A stretch of 63,186 bases of DNA, filler included, from Globobulimina sp. (Eukaryota): the NCBI GenBank assembly GCA_003354225.1. It is 10 parts of 10 records of this genome, joined end to end, with 100 filler letters (N's around TTAATTAATTAA, not from the genome) between each part and the next. Parts side by side here need not be neighbours in the genome. Positions count along the whole stretch, not along the records: positions 6,344 to 12,584 come from PIVH01000332.1; 9 more parts are not named here. The stretch is one strand, 5' to 3'. This document shows, in pieces, positions 2,738 through 41,170 of this stretch. Numbering within the stretch: position 1 is the first letter of the stretch; each line of letters begins with the position of its first letter. The position numbers and the translations under genes are program-made. A model generated the notes under the pieces. It saw nothing but the letters and a program-made list of their open reading frames with translations. It ran no database searches and was not told where the DNA came from.

Positions 2738-4255
2738 TTATTTCTGCTCATTCTTCTCAATCTGCGTCCACGTATTCATCTTTTCATCCGCCGCTCGAAC
2801 CTCTTCGTCCGAGAACTTTATGCCTAACACCACAAAGGACACAATAAAAACGAATATGCCTAATATCAACCACGCGGCGAAAAAACTCATATTCGACGGC
2901 ACGCGCGCAAAGATGCCGAACGCCATCAACATCGCACCCACATTGCCGCCGGCACCCACGAGCCCGGAAACTGGCCCAATGCCATCGGGCTGCACGAAGG
3001 GCACAATGGCGAAAGTCACGCCTTCTGCGGCCTGCACGAACAAACTGAACGAGATCAACATAAAGATGGTGTATCCCAACGACCCCGTCATAGCACCGAA
3101 ACTAAACCCAATTAAAAAGATGCTCTGCGCGAATAACACGATAAACAGCGACCACACGCGGCCTTGCAACGACTTCTCCGCAAACCGCGACACCACATCG
3201 GCCACCAAACCGCCAATGGAACGCGCGAACAGGTTACAGAACGAGAAGCAGAGAATAATAAAGCCGGACAGCTCCTGCGTTAAACCGAACTCGTGCATGA
3301 AATAACCGACCGCGAACCGCAAGACTGTCAATTCTGTGCCGAAGCAGGCCATGTAGCACAAATGCAAGATCCAGGTACGATAATCCTTGATGGCCAGCAT
3401 GAAGCCCTCGTTGGCGGCCTTGGCCTTGTTTCTAGACTCCATCTCCTTTGGGTCCACGGTCACGTCCACTAACTCGGTGCCGCCGACGCTCACGTCCGCG
3501 GCCGACACGCCCGGAGGCAATGGCGGCTTATCCACGGTGAAGGTCCAGTAAATGCCGGCCATCACTAAATACAAGCAAGCCGGCACCAACATGCAAACCC
3601 GCCACGACACGTTGGAGGCCATGCCGTAGGCGTTCATGAAATGCGTGTTCAAGACCGGCATAAAGAAGTTGGCGCAGCCTCCGCCGAAGTTGCCCCAGCC
3701 CGCAGAGGTCGCGTTGGCGGTGCCCACCGTCTTGCCGGCGAACATCTGCGTGGTGTGATATTGCGTGATCACGAAGGAGCCGCCCACCACGCCGATAAAC
3801 AACGACGTTATGATATAGCCCGCGGGCGTCTGCACTAATGCCATGCCGCCGACGGGGAAGAAGCAGATGCATAATAACACCAAATAGGAGCGCCGGCTGC
3901 CCAATCTCTGGCAGACCCACCCGATGAGCACCCGGAACAGCACCGTGGAGGCCACCGAGCAGCCTCCGGCGATGGCCTTATGTACGTCGGTTAAACCTAA
4001 ATCGGGCTGGATTTGCGTGTATAAGTTGGCGGTGGCGAACCAGCCAAAGAAACATAACCAAAATGTGAACCAGGTAATGTGGAAAACGCGGATGTGAATC
4101 GATTTGCAATAACAGAGCCATAATCGCGTGGCTTGGCCCATTTGGTTGGTTGGCATTCTGCGGGGACCGCCGGAGGCTGCTGGGCGAGGGTTGGATACAT
4201 CGGTCTGAGCTTGTTCGGCAATTAATGACGCCGATTTGTTCGGATCTGCAGACAT
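2738..4255 (-). CDS. NRT2: High-affinity nitrate/nitrite porter (NRT2/NNP family, MFS)
   Basis: About 12 hydrophobic segments. Nitrate-signature motifs AGWGNFGGG and GLVGAGGNVG, plus FGTELT and FARSIGG. Intronless. Confidence 0.93.
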   Translation of the reverse strand: MSADPNKSASLIAEQAQTDVSNPRPAASGGPRRMPTNQMGQATRLWLCYCKSIHIRVFHITWFTFWLCFFGWFATANLYTQIQPDLGLTDVHKAIAGGCSVASTVLFRVLIGWVCQRLGSRRSYLVLLCICFFPVGGMALVQTPAGYIITSLFIGVVGGSFVITQYHTTQMFAGKTVGTANATSAGWGNFGGGCANFFMPVLNTHFMNAYGMASNVSWRVCMLVPACLYLVMAGIYWTFTVDKPPLPPGVSAADVSVGGTELVDVTVDPKEMESRNKAKAANEGFMLAIKDYRTWILHLCYMACFGTELTVLRFAVGYFMHEFGLTQELSGFIILCFSFCNLFARSIGGLVADVVSRFAEKSLQGRVWSLFIVLFAQSIFLIGFSFGAMTGSLGYTIFMLISFSLFVQAAEGVTFAIVPFVQPDGIGPVSGLVGAGGNVGAMLMAFGIFARVPSNMSFFAAWLILGIFVFIVSFVVLGIKFSDEEVRAADEKMNTWTQIEKNEQK

Positions 4256-4766
4256 TTTGAGTGTGTTTCCCTTCGACTCTGTTTCTGTATAAGTTAGTTC
4301 GTGTGTGTTGTATATTGATTTTGTATGAGAGATTGTCAGATATTAATTTGAAACATTCTAAAATAGATAATAAGGACAGATTTATCAGATTTGTCGCATT
4401 TGCCACATTTTGCAGCTGACAATGTGCGGTTTGTCAATGTGTGCAGTAGCTGAAATTGTGGAGTTGGTATAAATGTGTGTATGATGACTAAACTCTATCT
4501 GTTTGGTTTTGATAGATTGTGTGTTTTGGAAAGAAAGTAAGTATTGTTTAAAAGAAAGGGTTGAAAGCAGATGTTTTTTTGAGTTGTTGAAAGTTTTGTT
4601 ATTTCAAACACATTTCTATTGGGAAGAAGATGTGTACTTTTTCTAAAAGTGCGATGAAAACAGACAATTTGGTGTGAACATAACATATAAATTAAAAAGC
4701 CAATCGGGGGCCAATCCGTAAGGGAAAATAAATGCATTTGGTTAAAACAAAAACTGTCAGTGAACC

Positions 4767-6243: not shown

Positions 6244-6343
6244 NNNNNNNNNNNNNNNNNNNNNNNNNNNNNNNNNNNNNNNNNNNNTTAATTAATTAAN
6301 NNNNNNNNNNNNNNNNNNNNNNNNNNNNNNNNNNNNNNNNNNN
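6244..6343. other. Artificial contig spacer N44-TTAATTAATTAA-N44 (also at 12585, 18923, 25260, 31590, 37920, 44246, 50566, 56881)
   Basis: Identical 100-nt linker with stops in all six frames. Contig lengths fall from about 6243 to 6215. Confidence 0.98.
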
Positions 6344-6558
6344 TGGTCGGATAAAAAGTGTTTATGGGTTCTCGATAGCGCCGAGAACGATGAAACGATC
6401 CATTTTCATGTCTAATCAACGGGATATATCCATTTTAATTAAAAAAGCTTAATACCAAGTTGTTTGTTGTTGTTGCTAAGCAACCGAAATATTTCTGACC
6501 CGTTTTTGGTCGGATAAAAAGTGTTTATAGCGCCGAGAACGATGAAACGAACCATTTT
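6344..6558. repeat. Imperfect direct repeat (6344-6406 and 6507-6558) containing a GTTCTCG..CGAGAAC hairpin
   Basis: TGGTCGGATAAAAAGTGTTTAT..AGCGCCGAGAACGATGAAACGA..CCATTTT occurs twice; the second copy has an internal deletion. Confidence 0.8.
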
Positions 6559-6578
6559 TATTAAAAAAACATATGATT

Positions 6579-6941
6579 TTAATACAAGTTAATCCATTTA
6601 TTTTCTGATTTCTTTTTTTTAATTGGATGGAAATCGGATTCATTTAATATTTTTTTGAATAGCTGATAGTCTGGAGGCAACGGGGATTTTTCTTCAGACA
6701 ACGACCATTTAATAAGGTCCAGTATAGGACTTCCGGTCGCCGACTTGCCGATGTAAGAAATTTTATTCTCATCTTTTGTAACGTAAATTCCATATGTTTG
6801 CAAAGCCTCCAATAATTTGTCAGCTTTCGTTTTCATTTCATCGGGAACCGCAGATAAAATTTGTTTCTTTAAATCATCAGTTATCTCTGTTAACTCGTCG
6901 TTTATTGGGAGCAGTTGAACTCTTTTAGGCATGTCGGACAA
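6579..6941 (-). CDS. Maverick-type small conserved protein
   Basis: ILSAVP..K.KADKLL...GSPILDLI...PPDY..F resembles a small ORF recurrent in Mavericks (recalled pattern, not searched). Confidence 0.6.
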   Translation of the reverse strand: MSDMPKRVQLLPINDELTEITDDLKKQILSAVPDEMKTKADKLLEALQTYGIYVTKDENKISYIGKSATGSPILDLIKWSLSEEKSPLPPDYQLFKKILNESDFHPIKKKKSENKWINLY

Positions 6942-7239
6942 TTAAATTATATAATTTCGGCAAAAAATCAGGTTTTGATTTCAACAAATACTTTCTTTTG
7001 CGGGAAACAGACACTTTTTTGTCGGCTAATATTGATATTAAAGCTAGATTTTGTTTTATCCAAATTTCTTGACCCTCGTCTAATATAATAGTGCTCTTTA
7101 ACAGGTTGTAACAAATTTCGGTAATACAATTGAATAAGTTATTTTTAACCTTTAGCAAAATCGGTTTTTTTAGATAAGCAAAAGAAGTAGAACTGAGTAA
7201 TTTTAATATTGGTTCACACTGAGACAATAGTGCAGACAT
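6925..7239 (-). CDS. Maverick-type small basic protein (putative core/virion protein)
   Basis: CITEICYNLLK..I.L...Q...LADKKVS..RKRKYL resembles the recurrent Maverick basic ORF. Confidence 0.6.
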   Translation of the reverse strand: MSALLSQCEPILKLLSSTSFAYLKKPILLKVKNNLFNCITEICYNLLKSTIILDEGQEIWIKQNLALISILADKKVSVSRKRKYLLKSKPDFLPKLYNLIVRHA

Positions 7240-7275
7240 AATTAAATATCAATAAAAAGATCATTATATATATAA

Positions 7276-8181
7276 TTATCCATTCTTCTCGTCTTCATCG
7301 TCATCCAGAATGGCGTATATTTTCTGATCCTGAATAACGGTAGCTTTTAACTAATATATTGGTCAATTTTTAGCTTACTTTCAATAACCCCGATCGTATT
7401 CGAAAATTCCACAAACAATTTGGTGTAAAGTCTAATAAAATAAATTCCCTTTTTTTACCACTTTCTTTGCACATTTCGTCATAGATCTTAACTAGGGTAC
7501 GGTACCTACTAGGCATAGCTTGGTTTGCCAAAGTCCTATAAATGAAAAATATTGGGAAATAATTGAAAGAAAATGGTATGCTACCTGACAGATCCCATGT
7601 TTTTTATCGATGGCAGTAATAATACATAACTACTGTTTCGTACAATGGTAGGATTATACTTTCCTTGAGGCGGATACAAATTTTGCACCAAATAAAACAC
7701 ATTAACATTGTTGTGGTGACTCCAAAAAGTAAAAATTTGGCTAAATTTTTCACTTTTCGATACCGTTTGCACTGAAACACGTGGCACGTGATTAAATTAC
7801 ACCCACGATTTAACAATATTAACTCAGATCATCGACTACAAGAATTCTTTGCTTTCCATCCGAAGGAAAAAGTCGTTTATTTTCCAGTAAATTTTCAGGA
7901 AACCCTTTTACAAATGTAACAGTTTGTGCGCAGTTGTCCTTTATGAAATTAAATAATTGTTTTTGATCGGCCTCATCCTTATATAGCCACACGATAGATT
8001 TAATCGGGTCTTCTATCGTATGATCTGATTCCGTAATAATATTAGCTACTAATGTGCTTTTGCCTTGACCAGACGAGCCTCAAAACAGTTTTTATTAATA
8101 TTCAATAATTTAATCAACATAAAATATACCAGCTACAATACAAGTAAATGGACCACACAGTTTTACAGTTTGCATTTCCAT
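7276..8181 (-). CDS. A32/FtsK-like DNA packaging ATPase, 234 aa (introns 8079-8129, 7772-7823, 7536-7584, 7330-7378)
   Basis: Splicing gives GPFTCIVAGSSGQGKST (Walker A), ILVVDDLM (Walker B), SHHNN..VQNLY, RTLANQ and FILLDF..FRIRS. Spliced length 705 nt, open frame. Confidence 0.92.
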
Positions 8182-8223
8182 CACTACATATACTAGATAA
8201 TGAAATCTCTTTTAAATACTATT

Positions 8224-9813
8224 TTATCGAGACCCAATAGGATGATGATCGAAGAGTCGTTGTTTTTTAATTAATGGTCCTACAGTATAATGTCGGTCAT
8301 ATTCGCAGTAGACTAAGATTACAATGTTGTCTTCCAGTTGGGCGTTAGCAAAATTAACTTGTAAAACACAGCTTCCGTACAAAGGTTTGCCATTATTGCT
8401 ACCATGTTTTAGGTTAATTGGCAGCATGAAAAAACCATTTTTGAACGCATCCCTTGTTATAGGGATGTTGGTAGAGCCGATAGATTCGCCCAGCTCACTA
8501 AACATCCTGAAAACAATAATTTACATAATCGTTTTAAAGAATTAGCGAATATTTACGATAAGTAAATTTCGTCATAATTGTCTAGTAGCGCAGCTTCATT
8601 ATACTGCAGTTGAAAAGCATTCTTTTTTGGTCTTTCTACCCCATCTTGCGTGAAAATGACTTCTTGAACAGAATTCGGAATAAATGAGAGAGGGTTTTTC
8701 TGATAAGACCCTACTCTACTCTTTTCTGGTTGAAACAATAGTATAATTTTCGATGGCAAATAACCCTAAAATATTATATACCAAAATAACGCTACACATT
8801 TCTTGTGCATAGTATACTTGTAAGATTTGTCTAGGACCCCAAGTTTTAACAGTTTTGTTGTGAGTAAATGTGTAGACGCAAGGCTGCACATAGCTATACA
8901 ATTCTTTGCCGATACTTGTTTTTGGTAGCACTCTAGCCACTTTCAATTTGGCACTAAGCCATTCCACACAATATTGTGCGCCAACTTTAGAACTTATTAA
9001 AGAGTGGCTTGGGTCAGCAGGGTACAATCGCAACGTAAAGTCCAAACCATCCGGGAGCAATTTATTTTGGTTTAGTGGCGCGCACAATAGCTGACCAGCG
9101 ACAAGGCAGGTTTCCGATTTGTCAATTCTTAAAGTATATGTTTTTAATAATTATTTATTCCACTACCCTTACTTTGTGGCCCGCCAGTGAAGAATTGGAT
9201 ATTCGGCGACAGTTATTTGTTCGCCTGGAAGTACCTCAAATTCACCTATAATAAACAATGGTAGGCCGTTATTGAGCAATCAGTTTATTGCCCACCTGGC
9301 TGATCTAGTTTATACAATGCCGATGCGAGTGTGGTGTCTCTCTTGCTACCGGGTGTGTAAAGAATTGTTTTCAAATAGGTTGTTAGCTGGTAGTCCATAT
9401 TTTGGTATACTTGTTGACCATTTACGAGTAATTCTATCCCCTAGAGAAAAAAGTGTGTTTCCTTGCAAAAAAAACAAATAGTGTAGTAATACTTTAAATG
9501 CCGAATACAGAAAGTTATTAATCGTTGTCACTGGTTCCTTATCTGGCAGCGCCGCAAATTGACCTGCCGGATTCTTTTTTAATACTCGAAATTGGAGGAA
9601 TATGTAAATTTCGTCGGTTTTCAAATTGTAGCCTTCTCGAGAGATTATGTTATATTGGTGAGGTGACAGATCTTGTCTAGGCATAACCGTTTCACACGGT
9701 ATATCTTGAAACAGATGATCCTATAAGCCCATCACTTTTTATTTTACTTATTTAAGTTAACTATTTACCTTGTACCCCTGTGAGGGCATTACGTTGTTAG
9801 ATTTTTTAGGCAT
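8224..9813 (-). CDS. Double jelly-roll major capsid protein (Polinton PY), 430 aa (introns 9721-9768, 9441-9492, 9246-9295, 9128-9172, 8766-8817, 8507-8556)
   Basis: Spliced motifs INNFLYSAFKGIELLVNG, YLKTIL, ALYKLDQPG, NQNKLLPDG, LPSKII..GSYQKNPLSF and NGFF..VYCEYD. Spliced length 1293 nt, open frame. Confidence 0.88.
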
Positions 9814-9855
9814 AATTAAACGTTTATTGAGTGAATAAATATGATTCAATATATA

Positions 9856-10708
9856 CTAAATGGACACATCACTGATCTTCCTTAGATGAAGAGCGGCCCA
9901 CACGTGACCCCTTGTCTGTACGAGTTCGTCTCCTCTTTCGTCTATCAGATTAATGAATATTTCTTCGATCGATCCATCACCCACCCATTTTCGATAAATC
10001 GGCTCGTCGAATGTTACAGTAATATATTCACCATAAGTTTCTTGTTCGTCGACATGAATGGTGCCCAAAGTACGCAAAATACCGTTGTTAACGAAAGATT
10101 CTTCTATACCATTGCAGCAAACGTAAATATTGTGTTGCCACGGTGATGGAAATGTATACGTGGCAGGTAATTTTACCGCATCTACCAGCATCCTTTCCGT
10201 TCCATTCAAATTGTCGAGTACGTTAGAATTGAGAGCAAGCAATGTGCATAAATTTGGACTGAATGTAGCTCTTACACCAGGACCGATCTTAATCTTTTTT
10301 ACATTACCTCTCCCCGACAACCCAAACCTTAAAAACAATAGATTAGCATAGTACACTATAAATACATGGTCGATCTTACTTTGCCCAGTTATCTGCATCC
10401 TCGCTCACTGTCATACGTTTCTCGATAGCTCCGTTGAGTTCGAGAAAAAGTTTTTCAAAAGTCTCGACTATGGCGTCTTTCAAAGTAAACTCTATAATAT
10501 GTTTACGACCGGTTTCTGAATCTATTTTTTCTAATGTAAGCCCGGCATTGGTTAAATTTGCCCATCCAGCACAAACGTGTGCTTCCAATAGACCAATTTC
10601 ATAACCACCACTGCTTAATGCGGACGGTAATTTAGCCACCGCTCTAGCTTTAGGCTCCAGAGGGGTATCGGAATTAAAATCAGAACAATAAATGTAATAA
10701 TTATCCAT
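9856..10708 (-). CDS. Minor capsid / penton protein (Polinton PX), 266 aa (intron 10328-10379)
   Basis: N-terminal LP..L..GGYEIGLLE and C-terminal IYVCC..IE...LRTL..F.EPIY..I.INLIDERG..LHLRK patterns. The intron has a GTAAG donor and a GCTAAT branch site. Confidence 0.85.
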
Positions 10709-10747
10709 TTTATTGAGAATAAGCAATAACCGTTTTATTTATATAGA

Positions 10748-11907
10748 TCAATCAGGAAGCACTACTTCCATCAGCTCTTCATTATAGTATGTACCAATTA
10801 ATTGTTCATTTTCCATATTTTTCAAACTGTAACGGTCTGGTATTCCGTGTTTCACCTAAAAACTTGATATATATACACCCTTAAACCATTATTTGTGCAT
10901 ACTTCGTCTATTAAAAATGTGACCATTGACCACGCACCTTTGTGGGTTTTCATAAAAGGGTGTCTAAAATATTCTATTTGCTTAGCGAATAATCGTTAAT
11001 TAATTACCTTAGAAGGGACACTCTCACTACCGTTCCAGGCTTAAGCTTTGGGTTTTTGTTTGTTCTTAAGTAGTCGTACAATTTTGCACCATATACGTTG
11101 TTAACTACTATATGTTGATTTGAGAAATTGATGTCGATTGGTGCGAATCCTGTAACTCTATTGACTGACCGATTTAAACCCAAAATTAAGTCATCCAAAT
11201 CGTCGATATAACGTGTAGGGTTTTTTATGCCGTAGTCTTTTTGATATGTAATAAATTTATAAATTCGTTCCTTGACACGTTTGACACCGTATTCCGCTAG
11301 AGAGGCTTTCAAAGGTTCCCGCAAAGCATACAATGTTACATTATATTGCTTTAATACATTTTGGACTTCACGATTCCAGAATTCCGTCCTAGGATTAAAA
11401 TTCATAAGATTTACATAAAATAAAAACAAACAACTACCCTAAATCTGATCCGATTAACGCGGGGGCAAATTTTGATTTAAAAAAATCTTGAATTTGTTCT
11501 GCCATGGTCGAACCTCTCTTGTTTTTTAATTTCAAAACATAAATCATTTTGCTCAGGCAATCGACCTAAACAATGGGGTTTGATGAGTTAGTATAAGAAT
11601 AACTTATTACCAAAATGCAGAGAAATTTGATTCCCCCATTAGTGCGCGAAAGTGTTGTCATATCTGCCAGATCCATCTGGAGATTATGTTCAATTCCGAA
11701 GGAGAGAATTTTTTGTCTTTTCATTTTTATTTTTCTAGGAGCATGTAAAGTGTAAGCCTTTTGACTTCTCAAAAAATTAAACAGCTGTTGTTTGGATATA
11801 TTCCACTTTTTACGCTTAATCGCTGCCATCATTTTATTTACACCTGCTAAGCCATGGTCTTTTTTGTAGTCATAATAAAGATTAGCCAACTTTTTATTGA
11901 CAGACAT
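10748..11907 (-). CDS. Maverick retroviral-like (rve) DDE integrase, 324 aa (introns 11566-11610, 11389-11437, 10964-11007, 10856-10902)
   Basis: LYYD..GV..SQKAYTLH, QMDLADM, VDCLSK, GSDLGTEF, ASLAE, VRVS, GTYYNEEL. The DDE triad is intact and intron 1 contains TACTAAC. Confidence 0.94.
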
Positions 11908-11929
11908 GTTTATAATAAATGGACGATGA

Positions 11930-12365
11930 TCACTGAATGATAAATTTATCAAAAACTCGTCTTTTCACATCTTTGCGTTCTTCATCGGAAGAAAAGGTTT
12001 TTTCCATAACCGCTTGATCAAAAGCATTGTTAAAGCTTAAATAGTCCAGAATTTTTATCCGATCGACGATATCGGAAATTTCTAGCTCCATGTCGAATTC
12101 TTCAAGGTATCGATTTATGTCGCTATCAGTTTGAGTTGATTTAGTTTCAAAGGTTTTTAATTGTTCAATCAGTACTGGGTACCAGGCTTGAACGTAAACC
12201 TTTTTAGTTTTTAGACAGTCGACCATGCCGTGTGTTTGGCGAATATGGCGCGCTAGAATAAGTTAAAACCTTAAAAAAACAGGGACCGTATCCTAACTTA
12301 CCTATATTACTACGTGAAATGTACTTGCTACAGTACATACAAGAAACCGCAACTCCCCTACTCAT
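11930..12365 (-). CDS. C2H2 zinc-finger protein, 128 aa (intron 12253-12301)
   Basis: Splicing reconstitutes CMYCSKYISRSNIARHIRQTH. Confidence 0.75.
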
Positions 12366-12684
12366 CACAGTAACAATGATTTTATTCACAAACAGAGCCA
12401 AAGAAGTTTTATTCAAAAACACAACCAATGATACATGGTATAAATAGCGTACGCCGTAACATTACACTTTTGTTCAATAATACCGTATTGCAAAACACCT
12501 CTATTAAAACGAAGGTTTACATAAGGTACTAGTTCGAAATGATATCCTCCTTTAATTTCCAGTGGTTCTAAAGTTTCGAATACTNNNNNNNNNNNNNNNN
12601 NNNNNNNNNNNNNNNNNNNNNNNNNNNNTTAATTAATTAANNNNNNNNNNNNNNNNNNNNNNNNNNNNNNNNNNNNNNNNNNNN

Positions 12685-25359: not shown

Positions 25360-27103
25360 CCCGGAACAAATCCATTGTATTAAACTCCGAATCCTGCTCT
25401 GTCAAAGAAACGCATGTTTCTCCATCTTGGAAGAAATCGTAATGCGCAGTGTCACCAAACTCGATATCGGCATATTGCAAGGTATCATAACCGATGGCGC
25501 CTTGATAAAAACCATAAAAATGGTCAAAGCCCCGGTTTGTGGGCGTGAATGCATCGATGGCATAGCCCATATGCCATTTGCCCACAGCGTACGTCTTATA
25601 GCCACCAATCGACTGCAACCAGTTTGCGATGGTTGGCTGACCAATGGGAAGGCCGCCGATTTCCGTATAATCCCAAGGCAACATTTTGCCAAACCCCATC
25701 TTATGCGCATACCTTCCAGTTATAAACTGTGAGCGCGACGGACTACACATTAAATGCGAATAATGTTTCTCCAAACTTATCGACTCTGCGTATAAATTAT
25801 CTATGTTTGGCGTGGGATAGGCGCCGCCATTAAAACTCACGTCGTTCCATCCAATGTCGTCCATCAAAATAAATACAATATTCGGTGGATCCATCGCACT
25901 CAAATATGGGTCCTTCCACGTATTATCATCAGATATTGGCTCTGGCTCTGGCTCTGGATCTGATGCATGTAACTGACGTAAAAACCATTTGTTATCATCG
26001 GATTCGAATCTTTGGGCTGGACACCAATCAGATTCAGCAGCGGATAATAACGACTCATCATAAAATGTACCAATATCATACACAACGCCCCAATCTTGGA
26101 AATCCCACAACATTCGTGGTGTGATCTCCATTTTGGATGAAATGGACCATTCGTTGGAGTCCACAAAATTAAAATGATATGGATCATCTAATTCAATCGC
26201 ACCGCATTCATGGAATCCCGGAGCACATTCTGCAGTGTACGCGTCTGGATATTCATGCAAATCCTCAGCAGCGATGGCGTTGTAACCATGACACGTGGCC
26301 CACATCGCCCGTATATACGCCACGAATGAGTGTAAAACCATAAATATTGGATCGTCGGGAGAATAGCCGGTGGCCATCGCACATTCATCGCATTGCGCAA
26401 AATACCAATGAACATGTTGATGTTCCAAAACAATGCCCCCTTTAAATGCTATAAATTCTTCGCGTGACATCACCTCAGCAATTTCCGGCGCGGTCGGCAA
26501 TAATATGCTTGGATCAACATTTCTTTTTAAACAGCAGCCATTTGCGGCATCCTCTTGTCGAGCGCATAAATTCTCTTCAATTATGGGCCACCTTTCAACA
26601 CTCCACAAAGGACCATTGACACACTCCATATCATTTGGATTACCATCACCGCCGAATACTGAATTTAATATAAATGCCTCTGTCTCATGACCTGCATCAA
26701 TGGAAAAATCATAATAAGGTAAAGCAAAGCATTTAAATTTGCCGCCTAAGGCTCGGATTTGACTGTATAGTTTCCAAAAGGTAGCATTCTAAAGCAATTA
26801 AAATATATCACTCAACGTTTCGACCTCCCAAACTAAATAAGTATGCCAGAAAAAAAAGGATGAACCGCGATGTATCATTGTATGCGTTGCATGATCGACG
26901 AGAATGTCTTGATATTTGCCATTTGCACGAATTGCATGCATTCCTTCCACGTAAAGCATTTTTTCTCCTTTTGATAATTTATGAATGGGTCTTCGGATTC
27001 GATCACATACCTCTTCTAAATATATGCCATGGCCAGAAGGCCCAAAACCAGCAATTAATTTTGTTAATATTGCAGATATTAATAATAAACCAAGTGCGAC
27101 CAT
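25360..27103 (-). CDS. Secreted tyrosinase (type-3 copper)-arylsulfatase fusion, 3' truncated (intron 26763-26816)
   Basis: Signal peptide; CuA H..IHRGSSFFFWH; LPYYD; CuB HQHVH..DPIFMVLH; PEPEPEP linker; PNIVFILMDDIGW, TPNID, CSPSRSQFITGRY, GKWHMG, RGFDHFYG. Confidence 0.87.
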
Positions 27104-38019: not shown

Positions 38020-40895
38020 CCAATCCTTGGTGAAAAATCATTAAAATTGTTGCAAATTCTTGCGATTCTAATTAGTTGTGTATAGAAGACTCTGTATCCC
38101 ATAGATGTATGTACATTACTGTTTGCAAATCCATATCTCACCACATAAAAATTGAAGTCATCCGTTTTGTTATACACTGCAATTCTATGTTTATCAGGGT
38201 TAACACATACCAATATATCAAGGAAACAACTTTCATATTTTGACTTAGCTGTGTTTTCTAGTGGTAAGCAGTTTGGATAAATAAGTTTAGCATGTTCTAG
38301 GAAGTTATCACAATTAATTGAAAGAATGTCATCTATATACCTCATTGTATGGCTCATTGATTTGGCTATCGTTTTGTTATTAATGTCTGTAAGAAAGTCA
38401 TATTCCAGCATACTTAATACAAGGTCTGCAATTAAAGGACTAGCATTGCCTCCCATAGGTACACCACATATTTGTTTAAATAAGAAACCGGCAAATTTAA
38501 CGTATGTTTCATCAATAACATTGTTGATAAGGCATTTAGTGTCAATGTTGTCTAGCATTGCCATATAACTACCTTTTACTTGGTCAGCATAATATACATT
38601 ATTGTAAGTAACAATTACATATTTTTTGTTAGCATGTCCAAATAGCAAATCAACAAGTTTGAACAACTGTTTTTTAATAATTTCATGAGGAAACATTGTG
38701 TATAGAGAACTAAAATCAGCGGTACATATGCTTTGCAATTGGTTAGCTTGAACTTTATGTTCTATTTTTCTATGTGCTTCCAGACTACCTTTGATTGACC
38801 AGTAACAATTATGTCCTTTCCTTTTGCTAACTATAGCACAGTATTTTTCAAAGTGTTGTTGAAAATGTGCTAAAACTCGATGTAATATTCTTGACATTGG
38901 CTTGGTTGATGAGTTACGAGCACCTGCTATAAATCGGAATTTGTATGGATTTTTATGCAATTTGGGTGTTGCGAATATAACAGGAAGCTTTTCGTCATCT
39001 GTTTCAAATTTAATAAGTCCTGTTTGTGCTGTAAGAAGTTTATGTTTATCAATAAGTTTACTTGCATCAATGTCACATGGTTTATAAACATCATTACCTA
39101 TTACAGTACAGGTTCCGTTATTATCCGTTTTAACACCAAGTTCCTTACACATAATTTCTATATAATATTTTTTACAAATAAAAATAAAGTTATTGCTTGC
39201 TTTATCTGCTGGTGCAATGACAAACTCATTCTGTAAATGCATTAATTCCCTTTGACTATCTTCGAGTGACAAACAAGAAACCATTCTTGTATTTCTAATA
39301 TTCTTTGACAAAAATTTTATTCTATTATCAATGATATTTACATAAAGCCCTTTGTATTCCTCTGTAGCCATAGTAACATCAACATATCTTCGAATTTTTG
39401 CAAATGTCTTCTTTATATATTCATCAACAACTTCCATAGCCACTTTTCTAACTTCTGTCCAATCAAATGATTTTGGCTCTCGAAACTTAGCTCCCTTACC
39501 AAAAAGTTTTCTGAGTTTTATATCATTAATGATATTTAGATCACCTGTAATAACATGCCCACATTGACTATAAACGTATTTAGAAGTTGAACAATTACAT
39601 TGTTTATTTGCAAAATTATTTAAATCATTATTTTGCAGCGTTTTTAATGTTTTATTATAATTGAACAATTTACGACTAATAGGTGTTTCATATTTATATG
39701 TAATAATGGGTAAATCGGATTTTTTATTGTTAATTGAAATTGTTTTTTGCAATCTTCTGTCCTTGAAAATGGTTTCTAGTTTAAGTAATTCAATACCCTT
39801 ATTTGGATATCTAGCAACAACAATAACTCCTTTAGATTTATTGTTGATTTTATTATTATAACCATAATATCCAGCCATAAATGCTTGTGTTGCAAGTTTT
39901 GCATCTCCATGCCAATGATCCAGGTTACCAGTTTGAATGGTTTGATTAACGAACAGTAAATTCTTTTTTGACATTGATCGTAAGAATATGTAGAGTTTCC
40001 GTCTATCAAAAAAGCCATTTGAGCAATCAATATTATGTTTAGTTTTATTGATGATATCAGGGTCAAGTTTCTTTGCTGTTCGTTTCTTCTTTCTGTTTCT
40101 ATTTCTTCTTGTAGATGGTAATGGTTTAGTGAAGTAAGGTTGTGTTGATTTAGATGCAGGGTCAATTCCGCATGACACATCTCCGTAGCTTTTGATTCTA
40201 TCATTCATACCATAAGGAAAAGCAGTAATCAATTGTCGAATCCAAAAATCTTCATTATTTTCACATTCCTTTCTATTTTTTATTTTATCTGTAGATATAG
40301 GTGTAGATTCTATAATCTGCACTTGTAGGTCATTAACATTATGTCCACTTTTATTAAAATGCTGTACTAAATAAGTATTTGTTTCATTTTTCTTGATAGA
40401 ATATACATGTTCAGCAATTCTCTCTTTAAGTTTTCTAATAGTTTGTCCAACATATTGCAGTTTACATTTTTGGCATGTGATAAGGTAAACAATGTTTTTA
40501 GTATTACAATTTAATTGTACTTGATCTGTACATGCTATATATTTGCTATTAGTGATAGTGCAATTTATATGTTGTTTTTCTTTGATGTATTTGCAGCAAC
40601 TGCATCTATTTCCATTGCATTTTTCTGTATAGTTATTAGTTGTATTATTATCATATATTTCGGGAATACAATTACATTTATTATTTTGATTAGTTTGTTT
40701 GGTGAATATAAAACAAGCTCCTTCCAAAAATCTTCTTGGATGACTAGAAGATACACTTTGACTAGCACTCAGTCCATCCCACATAGCATGTGCCCCGGCA
40801 CCACTGTGAAATGAAGGTGGTGTTACGGAGGGTTCACCCCCAGTGATTTTAGAACCCATCTGGGGAAAAGGGCCGGTCTCTGATTGTACTTCCAT
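38020..40895 (-). CDS. PLE GIY-YIG endonuclease-reverse transcriptase (continues at 44126-43970; 1010 aa total if the first ATG is used)
   Basis: CNTKNIVYLITC..C..QYVGQT...L.ER..EH, E.FWI..L....PYGMN; ADKA, PKLHK, ADFSSLYT, GVPMGG, RYIDD, FLD. Confidence 0.95.
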
Positions 40896-41170
40896 TGTTT
40901 GATTAATGGTGGAATAAAATTGTCAAGATGAATGAAACCAGGTATTGGACAAGAGTCAATAGGTCAAAACAAAATATTTGACTTAAGTATATTTAAAGAA
41001 AAGATGAATTAGACAAATTATCTGACTAGATGTCAGTAATAAATTACTGACTCAGAGTATTATTCTATTTACAACGGAAGGAGAAATACTATAGACATTG
41101 ATATGTAAATTTGTATGGAACTTATAACTATATGTGAGTTTATTTGGAAATAGATGTAGTTTATTAGATG

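Follow-up and report, generated by a model that had tools for sequence, protein, structure and literature searches.

Short introns throughout the capsid module of a putative Polinton-type element in a Globobulimina sp. genome assembly

Five interrupted genes on one contig

Five intron-bearing genes of viral type lie together on contig PIVH01000332.1, which forms part of a 63,186-base stretch of the Globobulimina sp. assembly GCA_003354225.1 (hereafter the window). They encode a zinc-finger protein (ZnF), an integrase-like protein (INT), a penton-like (minor capsid) protein, a major capsid protein (MCP) and a P-loop ATPase with a putative packaging role, and we propose that they belong to a fragment of a Polinton/Maverick-type element. 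The window consists of ten pieces of 6,206–6,243 bases, arranged in descending length and separated by 18 runs of 44 N that are paired around a 12-base six-frame stop linker. Adjacency across the linker sites (6244–6343, 12585–12684 and seven more) is artificial. The ten pieces are separate contigs, so the other genes of the window are not physical neighbours of the capsid module, which occupies piece 2 (6344–12584, 6,241 bases).

The genes are tightly packed. All five are on the minus strand, and at least eight genes share one strand of the contig, with spacers of 22–50 nucleotides (nt). The four spacers among the intron-bearing genes measure 22, 39, 42 and 42 nt, and another 36 nt separate the ATPase stop codon from the next open reading frame (ORF). 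Such dense spacing is characteristic of viruses and would not accommodate ordinary nuclear promoters.

Starting from five start codons, we placed 16 GT...AG intervals: one in ZnF, four in INT, one in the penton-like gene, six in MCP and four in the ATPase gene. Their removal yields frames of 128, 324, 266, 430 and 234 amino acids (aa) with no internal stops. The module begins at 12365, the initial base of the ZnF start codon, and ends at 7276, the final base of the ATPase stop codon. ZnF (11930–12365, 128 aa) has exons at 12365–12302 and 12252–11930, separated by a phase 1 intron at 12301–12253 (49 nt, GTAAGT...TCTAG). The INT gene (10748–11907, 324 aa, five exons) has introns, given here and below from donor to acceptor, at 11610–11566 (45 nt), 11437–11389 (49 nt), 11007–10964 (44 nt) and 10902–10856 (47 nt). 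The penton-like gene (9856–10708, 266 aa) comprises exons 10708–10380 and 10327–9856 around a phase 2 intron of 52 nt (10379–10328). The MCP gene (8224–9813, 430 aa, seven exons) carries introns 1–6 at 9768–9721 (48 nt), 9492–9441 (52 nt), 9295–9246 (50 nt), 9172–9128 (45 nt), 8817–8766 (52 nt) and 8556–8507 (50 nt). Last in order, the ATPase gene (7276–8181, 234 aa, five exons) is interrupted at 8129–8079 (51 nt), 7823–7772 (52 nt), 7633–7585 (49 nt) and 7378–7330 (49 nt).

The 16 intervals form a narrow class. Lengths range from 44 to 52 nt (mean 49.0, standard deviation 2.5, n = 16), and G+C content is 0.16–0.38 compared with 0.35–0.41 in exons. Intron density reaches 3.85 per kb of coding sequence. 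Without splicing, no stop-to-stop piece of any of the five genes exceeds 182 codons, and the longest in MCP is 144 aa. On retention, the four introns whose lengths are divisible by three each introduce an in-frame stop, 15 of 16 lead to a stop within 33 codons, and the exception, MCP intron 2 (52 nt), shifts the frame. Two introns split glycine codons close to motifs. ATPase intron 1 (phase 1) splits a glycine codon as G|GC (residue 18) directly before SSGQGKST, and INT intron 2 (phase 2) splits a glycine codon as GG|G two residues past the aspartate of an SDL motif. Printed side by side and compared by eye for likeness to introners, the 16 introns revealed no common core apart from their splice sites and a T-rich stretch at the 3' end.

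A preliminary description of this DNA had reported 16 GT-AG introns of 44–52 nt, distributed 1/4/1/6/4 among intact genes, with one splitting the Walker A glycine codon and another the codon after the second integrase aspartate motif. We recovered the same intervals and coordinates, the same five stop-free frames and both split codons, and the 16-interval observation is confirmed. Two further ideas were set aside. A 55-nt candidate intron that would join ZnF to INT (12010–11956) has poor splice sites, exceeds the 44–52 nt class and is superfluous to both frames. Eliminated sequences of the ciliate type fit poorly, as the intervals end in GT and AG and are not TA-bounded, and long frames elsewhere in the window are open under the standard code.

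Frame restoration and chance

Frame restoration alone is weak evidence, because maximising coding length without constraint also chained separate genes together via poor GT-AG pairs. We compared the contig with 40 dinucleotide shuffles, scoring the longest open frame that allows a capped number of 44–52 nt GT-AG introns. With up to six introns, the real minus strand stays open for 1698 nt, against 437 ± 121 nt in the shuffles (maximum 726); the real plus strand reaches 420 nt. With up to four introns, the shuffle maximum is 834 nt, and the 975-nt INT frame exceeds all 40 shuffles. Taken singly, the ATPase frame (705 nt, four introns) is inside the range of the best shuffles (maximum 834), as is the ZnF frame (387 nt, one intron; maximum 489).

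Distant relatives share an intron position

Protein searches recovered few relatives of the MCP. Searched exhaustively by HMMER with MCP exon 5 as the query, 1.84 billion representative proteins gave four matches. One of these, P0001, is 77% identical, and its match ends exactly at the end of exon 5, where it continues with Val-Ser, as donor read-through predicts. Another, P0004, led to a small unnamed family (P0004–P0016) that includes P0012, a protein of 443 aa; a profile search with alignment A2 returned this family and nothing else. The match to P0003, a 1683-aa repeat protein with 31 residues matched, appears spurious, and this protein was left out of every alignment. A word-indexed protein search with the 144-aa MCP ORF against longer proteins gave no match. 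A viral contig collection, scanned with five queries (the A2 alignment, MCP exon 5, INT exon 3, penton exon 2 and ATPase exon 2), likewise yielded no relative.

P0012 follows the exon order of the window gene. A tblastn comparison of P0012 with the window gave collinear matches to MCP exons 2, 3, 5, 6 and 7 at about 30–35% identity. Their edges coincide exactly with both ends of exon 2 (residues 25–101) and with the beginning of exon 6 (residue 282).

Metagenomic loci allowed the intron positions to be compared directly. A scan with the family alignment found seven loci (L001–L007), of which five (L001–L005) cover the 5' half of MCP; a scan with MCP exon 2 as the query found no relative. All five of these loci carry a phase 0 GT-AG intron (57, 53, 48, 50 or 59 nt) at ...MFK|D..., the site of window MCP intron 2. 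In all five, a further intron follows the first exon, which is short and basic and encodes 8–12 aa, compared with 15 aa in the window. From residue ~102 to the stop codon, each then reads as one uninterrupted frame of 345–394 codons across the sites of MCP introns 3–6, which are missing there. The raw DNA of the relatives therefore confirms the spliced reading of the window MCP.

The penton-like gene behaves in the same way. Uninterrupted homologues of it adjoin the MCP homologue in all four of L001, L002, L004 and L005, on the same strand as MCP in the first two and on the opposite strand in the last two. The L005 protein crosses the window intron site (residues 123|124) without a gap, reading WVK|FGG against WAK|FGL. 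In all, relatives support six of the 16 introns: MCP intron 2, MCP introns 3–6 and the penton intron.

The pattern of substitution separates exons from introns. In run X2, a divergent relative departs from MCP exon 2 at 17 third, four first and no second codon positions, a tally of the 21 listed differences, with eight further rows outside it. Across the long 3' exon of MCP, differences at codon positions 1/2/3 number 35/23/145 between L001 and L002 and 35/23/106 between L003 and L004. The shared MCP intron, by comparison, varies in length among the relatives and aligns at only 63–70%. These figures point to purifying selection on the exons and not on the introns.

Taken together, GT-AG ends, restored frames, a conserved position and the lack of coding constraint inside the intervals support their reading as real spliceosomal introns, as the preliminary description had held. 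MCP intron 2 appears to be old, to judge from its presence in proteins that share only ~30–35% identity.

The family also extends to other samples. Run X1 contains 26 matching records, eight at ≥99% identity, seven at 95–99%, four at 90–95% and seven below 90%. Within that sample the family is therefore either multi-copy or diverse. Pieces with one or two differences over 110–242 bases occur in run X2, a marine metagenome from a different study.

Three features of the relatives' own architecture stand apart from the introns. First, L002 (~1066–1266), L003 (10–210), L004 (1059–1244) and L005 (1089–1256) share a conserved stretch upstream of the first MCP exon whose translation reads ...RGDDL(L/F)K(Y/F)... 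and then a basic run; the 42-nt spacer of the window lacks this stretch, which may represent a small gene or conserved regulatory DNA. Second, a conserved ORF of ~100–140 aa with no Pfam family follows MCP in L001 (2540–2845), L002 (2628–3053) and L007 (551–865), where the window has the ATPase gene; gene order therefore varies within the family. Third, the divergent relative in run X2 joins 9723 to 9867, skipping or replacing 143 nt (the penton stop, the spacer, MCP exon 1 and intron 1), so the 5' end of MCP is built differently in that copy.

Identities of the encoded proteins

We assigned the MCP by structure. AlphaFold2 was run on P0012 with a 25-row alignment that included the window exons and the 5' exons of the loci, and returned a model rich in beta strands, with a predicted local distance difference test (pLDDT) score of 59.5 and a predicted template modelling (pTM) score of 0.56; with 10 close sequences, pLDDT was 30.9 and the model unusable. 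Foldseek found 105 matches to the model in BFVD at E ≤ 1e-3. Among the best 50 of these 105, 29 are named capsid proteins, 12 are nameless and nine are otherwise named, including adomavirus LO7, African swine fever virus B646L and a poxvirus 62-kDa protein. A Cotesia sesamiae bracovirus protein heads the list (4.9e-16, 21% identity), followed by an adintovirus capsid protein (2.0e-14); adomavirus LO7 and virophage capsids are also near the top, and the matches span virophages, giant viruses, phages and adintoviruses. In the PDB, Foldseek found 163 matches at E ≤ 1e-3, led by the Sputnik virophage capsid (2.4e-12, TM-score 0.50), and the best 26 of the 163 are without exception double jelly-roll capsids or poxvirus D13-type scaffolds. 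The predicted fold thus supports the identification of MCP as a double jelly-roll major capsid protein, in agreement with the preliminary description, by way of the relative P0012. Protein language-model neighbours of P0012, which we treat as leads, are eukaryotic clusters (Arthropoda, Nematoda) of 428–459 aa, one with a double jelly-roll-like domain in 24% of its members. A PDB sequence search with the MCP family profile gave nothing meaningful.

The remaining proteins were named from motifs, weak matches and leads. Pfam searches of stop-to-stop ORFs and in-frame exons gave nothing above cut-offs, and PHROGs gave nothing. For the penton-like protein, whose gene adjoins MCP in four related loci, exon-level searches found no Pfam or PHROGs match. 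Language-model neighbours of the L002 homologue, again leads, are viral (Preplasmiviricota) clusters, and the cluster at rank 28 contains the Sputnik V18/19 minor-capsid family in 26% of its members. INT exon 2 (42 aa) matches Pfam rve positions 30–73 below the cut-off (E 0.086), a D...D...E pattern can be read by eye across exons 1–3, and a PDB sequence search and PHROGs gave no match for the INT exon. ATPase exon 2 has generic sub-threshold P-loop matches (NB-ARC, E 0.002–0.008); the split glycine codon completes its Walker A motif, a Walker B-like VVDDL ends the exon, and a search for the FtsK/A32 family by PDB sequence comparison with the exon and by PHROGs gave no match. ZnF exon 1 matches zf-BED weakly (E 0.013, below the cut-off), with a cysteine pair in exon 1 and a histidine pair in exon 2. 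We infer the integrase, ATPase and ZnF families from these features. Integrase and ATPase family membership did not reach significance in the exon-level searches.

Other features of the contig and the window

Beyond the five genes, the contig carries at least three ORFs on the same strand. Upstream of ZnF, the 3' end of a further gene (12416–12583, minus strand, 56 codons, no Pfam family) is open and runs off the contig end. At 12437–12476, the X2 relative has nine of 10 listed differences at codon position 3 of this frame; these third-position differences, together with a frame that runs off the contig, are our grounds for a gene here. Between the fragment and the ZnF start, at 12380–12431, are two 25-nt direct repeats, each with AATAAA on the minus strand. 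Downstream of the ATPase gene, two closely packed intronless ORFs at 7239–6925 (104 aa) and 6932–6579 (117 aa), together spanning 6579–7239 on the minus strand, have no family that we could find. One end of the contig is therefore inside a gene, and the opposite end (6344–6581) carries short direct repeats of 22–35 nt spaced 152–163 nt apart (D2, D7). Here the contigs of run X1 vary by small indels and are joined in alternative ways. The contig has no host flank.

The short spacers are enriched in AATAAA: five of the 18 copies on the contig are inside the 231 nt of six short spacers, where ~0.7 would be expected. Trans-splice acceptors before start codons, looked for by eye in the spacers, are not consistently present. 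An adenain-like cysteine protease was not seen among the ORFs of this 6,241-bp contig, one end of which is inside a gene.

Other pieces of the window hold unrelated features. At 38022–40922 (minus strand), a 967-codon open frame combines an N-terminal GIY-YIG domain with a C-terminal reverse transcriptase domain; we take it to be, possibly, a Penelope-like retroelement with permuted domains, and its contig is the strongest trinucleotide outlier (mean r 0.22). A 534-codon major-facilitator transporter frame at 2741–4342 (minus strand) includes a stretch, especially 3001–4000, at 56.6% G+C on a contig otherwise at 29–38%, which could reflect foreign origin or an assembly chimera. Finally, 25361–26788 (minus strand) pairs a tyrosinase central domain with a sulfatase domain in one frame, an unusual combination that runs off the contig end.

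Weighing the interpretations

We read contig 6344–12584 as a fragment of a Polinton/Maverick-type element, nearest to the adintovirus-like double jelly-roll members, with genuine spliceosomal introns in its genes, of which at least one is ancient, and give this a probability of about 0.7. On this account, the DNA would be transcribed in the nucleus, and the host spliceosome would remove the introns to give the capsid, integrase and ATPase proteins. MCP intron 2 would be old. MCP introns 3–6 and the penton intron, absent from the relatives, would either have been gained in the window lineage or lost in the others.

Several observations weigh against this interpretation. The fold was predicted for P0012 and not for the window's own MCP, from a model of moderate confidence with TM-scores of only 0.30–0.53. 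P0012 itself crosses both 5' junctions without extra residues, and may therefore be a predicted spliced model rather than an independent intron-less copy. Integrase, ATPase and penton all fall below significance in the exon searches of Pfam, PHROGs and PDB sequences. Nine introns (one in ZnF, four in INT and four in ATPase) are without support from relatives and are drawn from frame, motifs, canonical ends, size class and composition. MCP intron 1 and the first intron of the relatives align ~8–12 residues apart, and their homology is therefore uncertain. Matching DNA contigs from four runs are collinear with this one, introns included, and are uninformative on expression. The 6.2-kb contig holds no pPolB, protease, terminal inverted repeats (TIRs) or target site duplication (TSD). 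Lastly, the host is presumed, and the trinucleotide composition of the contig correlates with the other contigs at a mean r of 0.49, unlike seven of those, which correlate with one another at 0.78–0.95; this difference also counts in favour of the element.

The absence of pPolB and protease is what an alternative of the same general kind would predict, namely a polinton-like virus (PLV) or another small virus of the double jelly-roll lineage that lacked pPolB and an adenain-type protease from the outset, such as an integrase-bearing PLV. The MCP fold is the one identity that is established, ZnF, the two downstream ORFs and the upstream fragment match no family, none of the five viral contig scans found a close relative, and the structural matches reach beyond adintoviruses to virophages, giant viruses and phages. 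We nevertheless consider this alternative unlikely. The structural neighbour with the highest score and identity is the bracovirus record and the next is an adintovirus, and a Maverick is reported to have moved into a Cotesia bracovirus. An rve-type integrase beside a capsid module is a Polinton hallmark, and the language-model leads for P0012 run to Arthropoda and Nematoda clusters, one with the double jelly-roll-like domain.

A different account, raised in the preliminary description, is domestication: capsid, ATPase and integrase genes kept as nuclear genes, in which introns accumulated as in host genes. Intact frames in all five genes, purifying selection and intron positions conserved in distant relatives would be expected of cellular genes. 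The arrangement fits poorly, however, with gaps of 22–42 nt among five same-strand genes, too short to hold ordinary promoters. Integrase and ATPase genes persist alongside the capsid genes, run X1 holds many diverged copies in one sample, and the orientation of penton and MCP varies among relatives. The other contigs of the window have uninterrupted frames of 927–1645 codons and only sparse candidate introns of ~50–80 nt; with 3.85 introns per kb and its distinct composition, the element looks unlike its presumed host. We regard domestication as improbable.

That the genes are decayed pseudogenes whose frames are restored by chance GT-AG pairs is very improbable: although the unconstrained search chained unrelated genes via poor pairs and the ZnF and ATPase frames alone are within the best shuffles, the shuffles fall short of the observed frames overall, exon edges coincide with alignment edges of the relatives, all five relatives share the position of MCP intron 2, substitutions gather at third codon positions and the introns keep to a tight 44–52 nt class.

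Returning to a Polinton-type element with real introns, we tentatively suggest a broader possibility, to which we give somewhat worse than even odds: that a clade of Maverick/adintovirus-like viruses has long carried spliceosomal introns in its capsid genes, that these travel with the viral DNA, and that one lineage has reached an intron density like that of cellular genes, ~3.9 per kb of coding sequence. If so, such viruses would be systematically invisible to ORF-based discovery, and intron gain on a mobile genome could be dated in a naturally occurring system. With only four HMMER matches among so many proteins, lineages of this kind are probably under-counted. An intron position shared at about one-third identity would further imply that the elements have been expressed via the nucleus for a long time, which bears on whether Polinton-type elements live as viruses, transposons or both. 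The two MCP introns of the relatives and the six of the window could then serve as a dated series for intron gain or loss on a mobile genome.

Comparison with known systems

The published accounts that we consulted describe Polinton core genes as intronless. Intact vertebrate Mavericks are described as intronless (PMC8097293). In nematode Mavericks the core genes are described as intronless and introns occur in cargo genes (10.1101/2022.07.12.499685). Gene prediction in surveys of endogenous PLVs commonly assumes unbroken ORFs. One survey of protist endogenous PLVs and virophages used a gene finder made for prokaryotes, reasoning that endogenous viruses are free of introns, and keeps proteins of 200–900 aa (PMC10120064). 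These three sources agree with the preliminary description that Polinton core genes are normally intronless; the intron-bearing nematode Polintons that it mentioned do not match the nematode account, in which the introns are in cargo genes. Its expectation that ORF-based scans would miss the element is plausible, given the 144-aa limit of the MCP pieces against the 200–900 aa filter. Among other PLVs, those of cryptophytes carry group I introns (PMC12220804), and in those of Oxyrrhis GT-AG sites were sought and none found (PMC12721341). Dense, position-conserved spliceosomal introns in Polinton capsid genes were not reported in the full-text literature that we searched, with supplements and Kapitonov and Jurka 2006 outside its scope.

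Set beside animal Maverick/Polinton elements and adintoviruses, the contig shares a double jelly-roll MCP (by fold, via the relative), an adjacent penton-like gene, a putative P-loop ATPase, a putative rve-like integrase and tight one-strand packing. It differs in its 16 spliceosomal-type introns in five genes, in having no pPolB, protease, TIRs or TSD, and in carrying a ZnF gene and ORFs without a known family.

Nuclear DNA viruses with spliced structural genes offer a second comparison. Adenovirus and adomavirus late genes are spliced, and some giant viruses have spliceosomal introns. As in those viruses, the capsid genes described here would need the host spliceosome, and adomavirus LO7 is among the best structural matches to the P0012 model. 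Those viruses, however, rely on leader splicing or on alternative splicing of long transcripts, or carry scattered single introns, and are not known to place several tiny introns in each coding sequence.

Protist endogenous PLVs and virophages are likewise small capsid-encoding DNA virus genes in eukaryotic assemblies (PMC10120064), and differ in that the window MCP is divided into pieces that are all ≤144 aa. Among the accounts consulted, the closest precedent is the introners of dinoflagellate Maverick-Polinton-like proviruses, transposable families that were mostly acquired after integration (PMC11957031). Those proviruses are integrated and, like the element described here, are polinton-like, carry spliceosomal introns and retain capsid genes. 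In contrast, the introns of the window measure 44–52 nt, are mutually unlike by eye and occupy at least one position shared with relatives at ~30–35% protein identity, a sign of great age.

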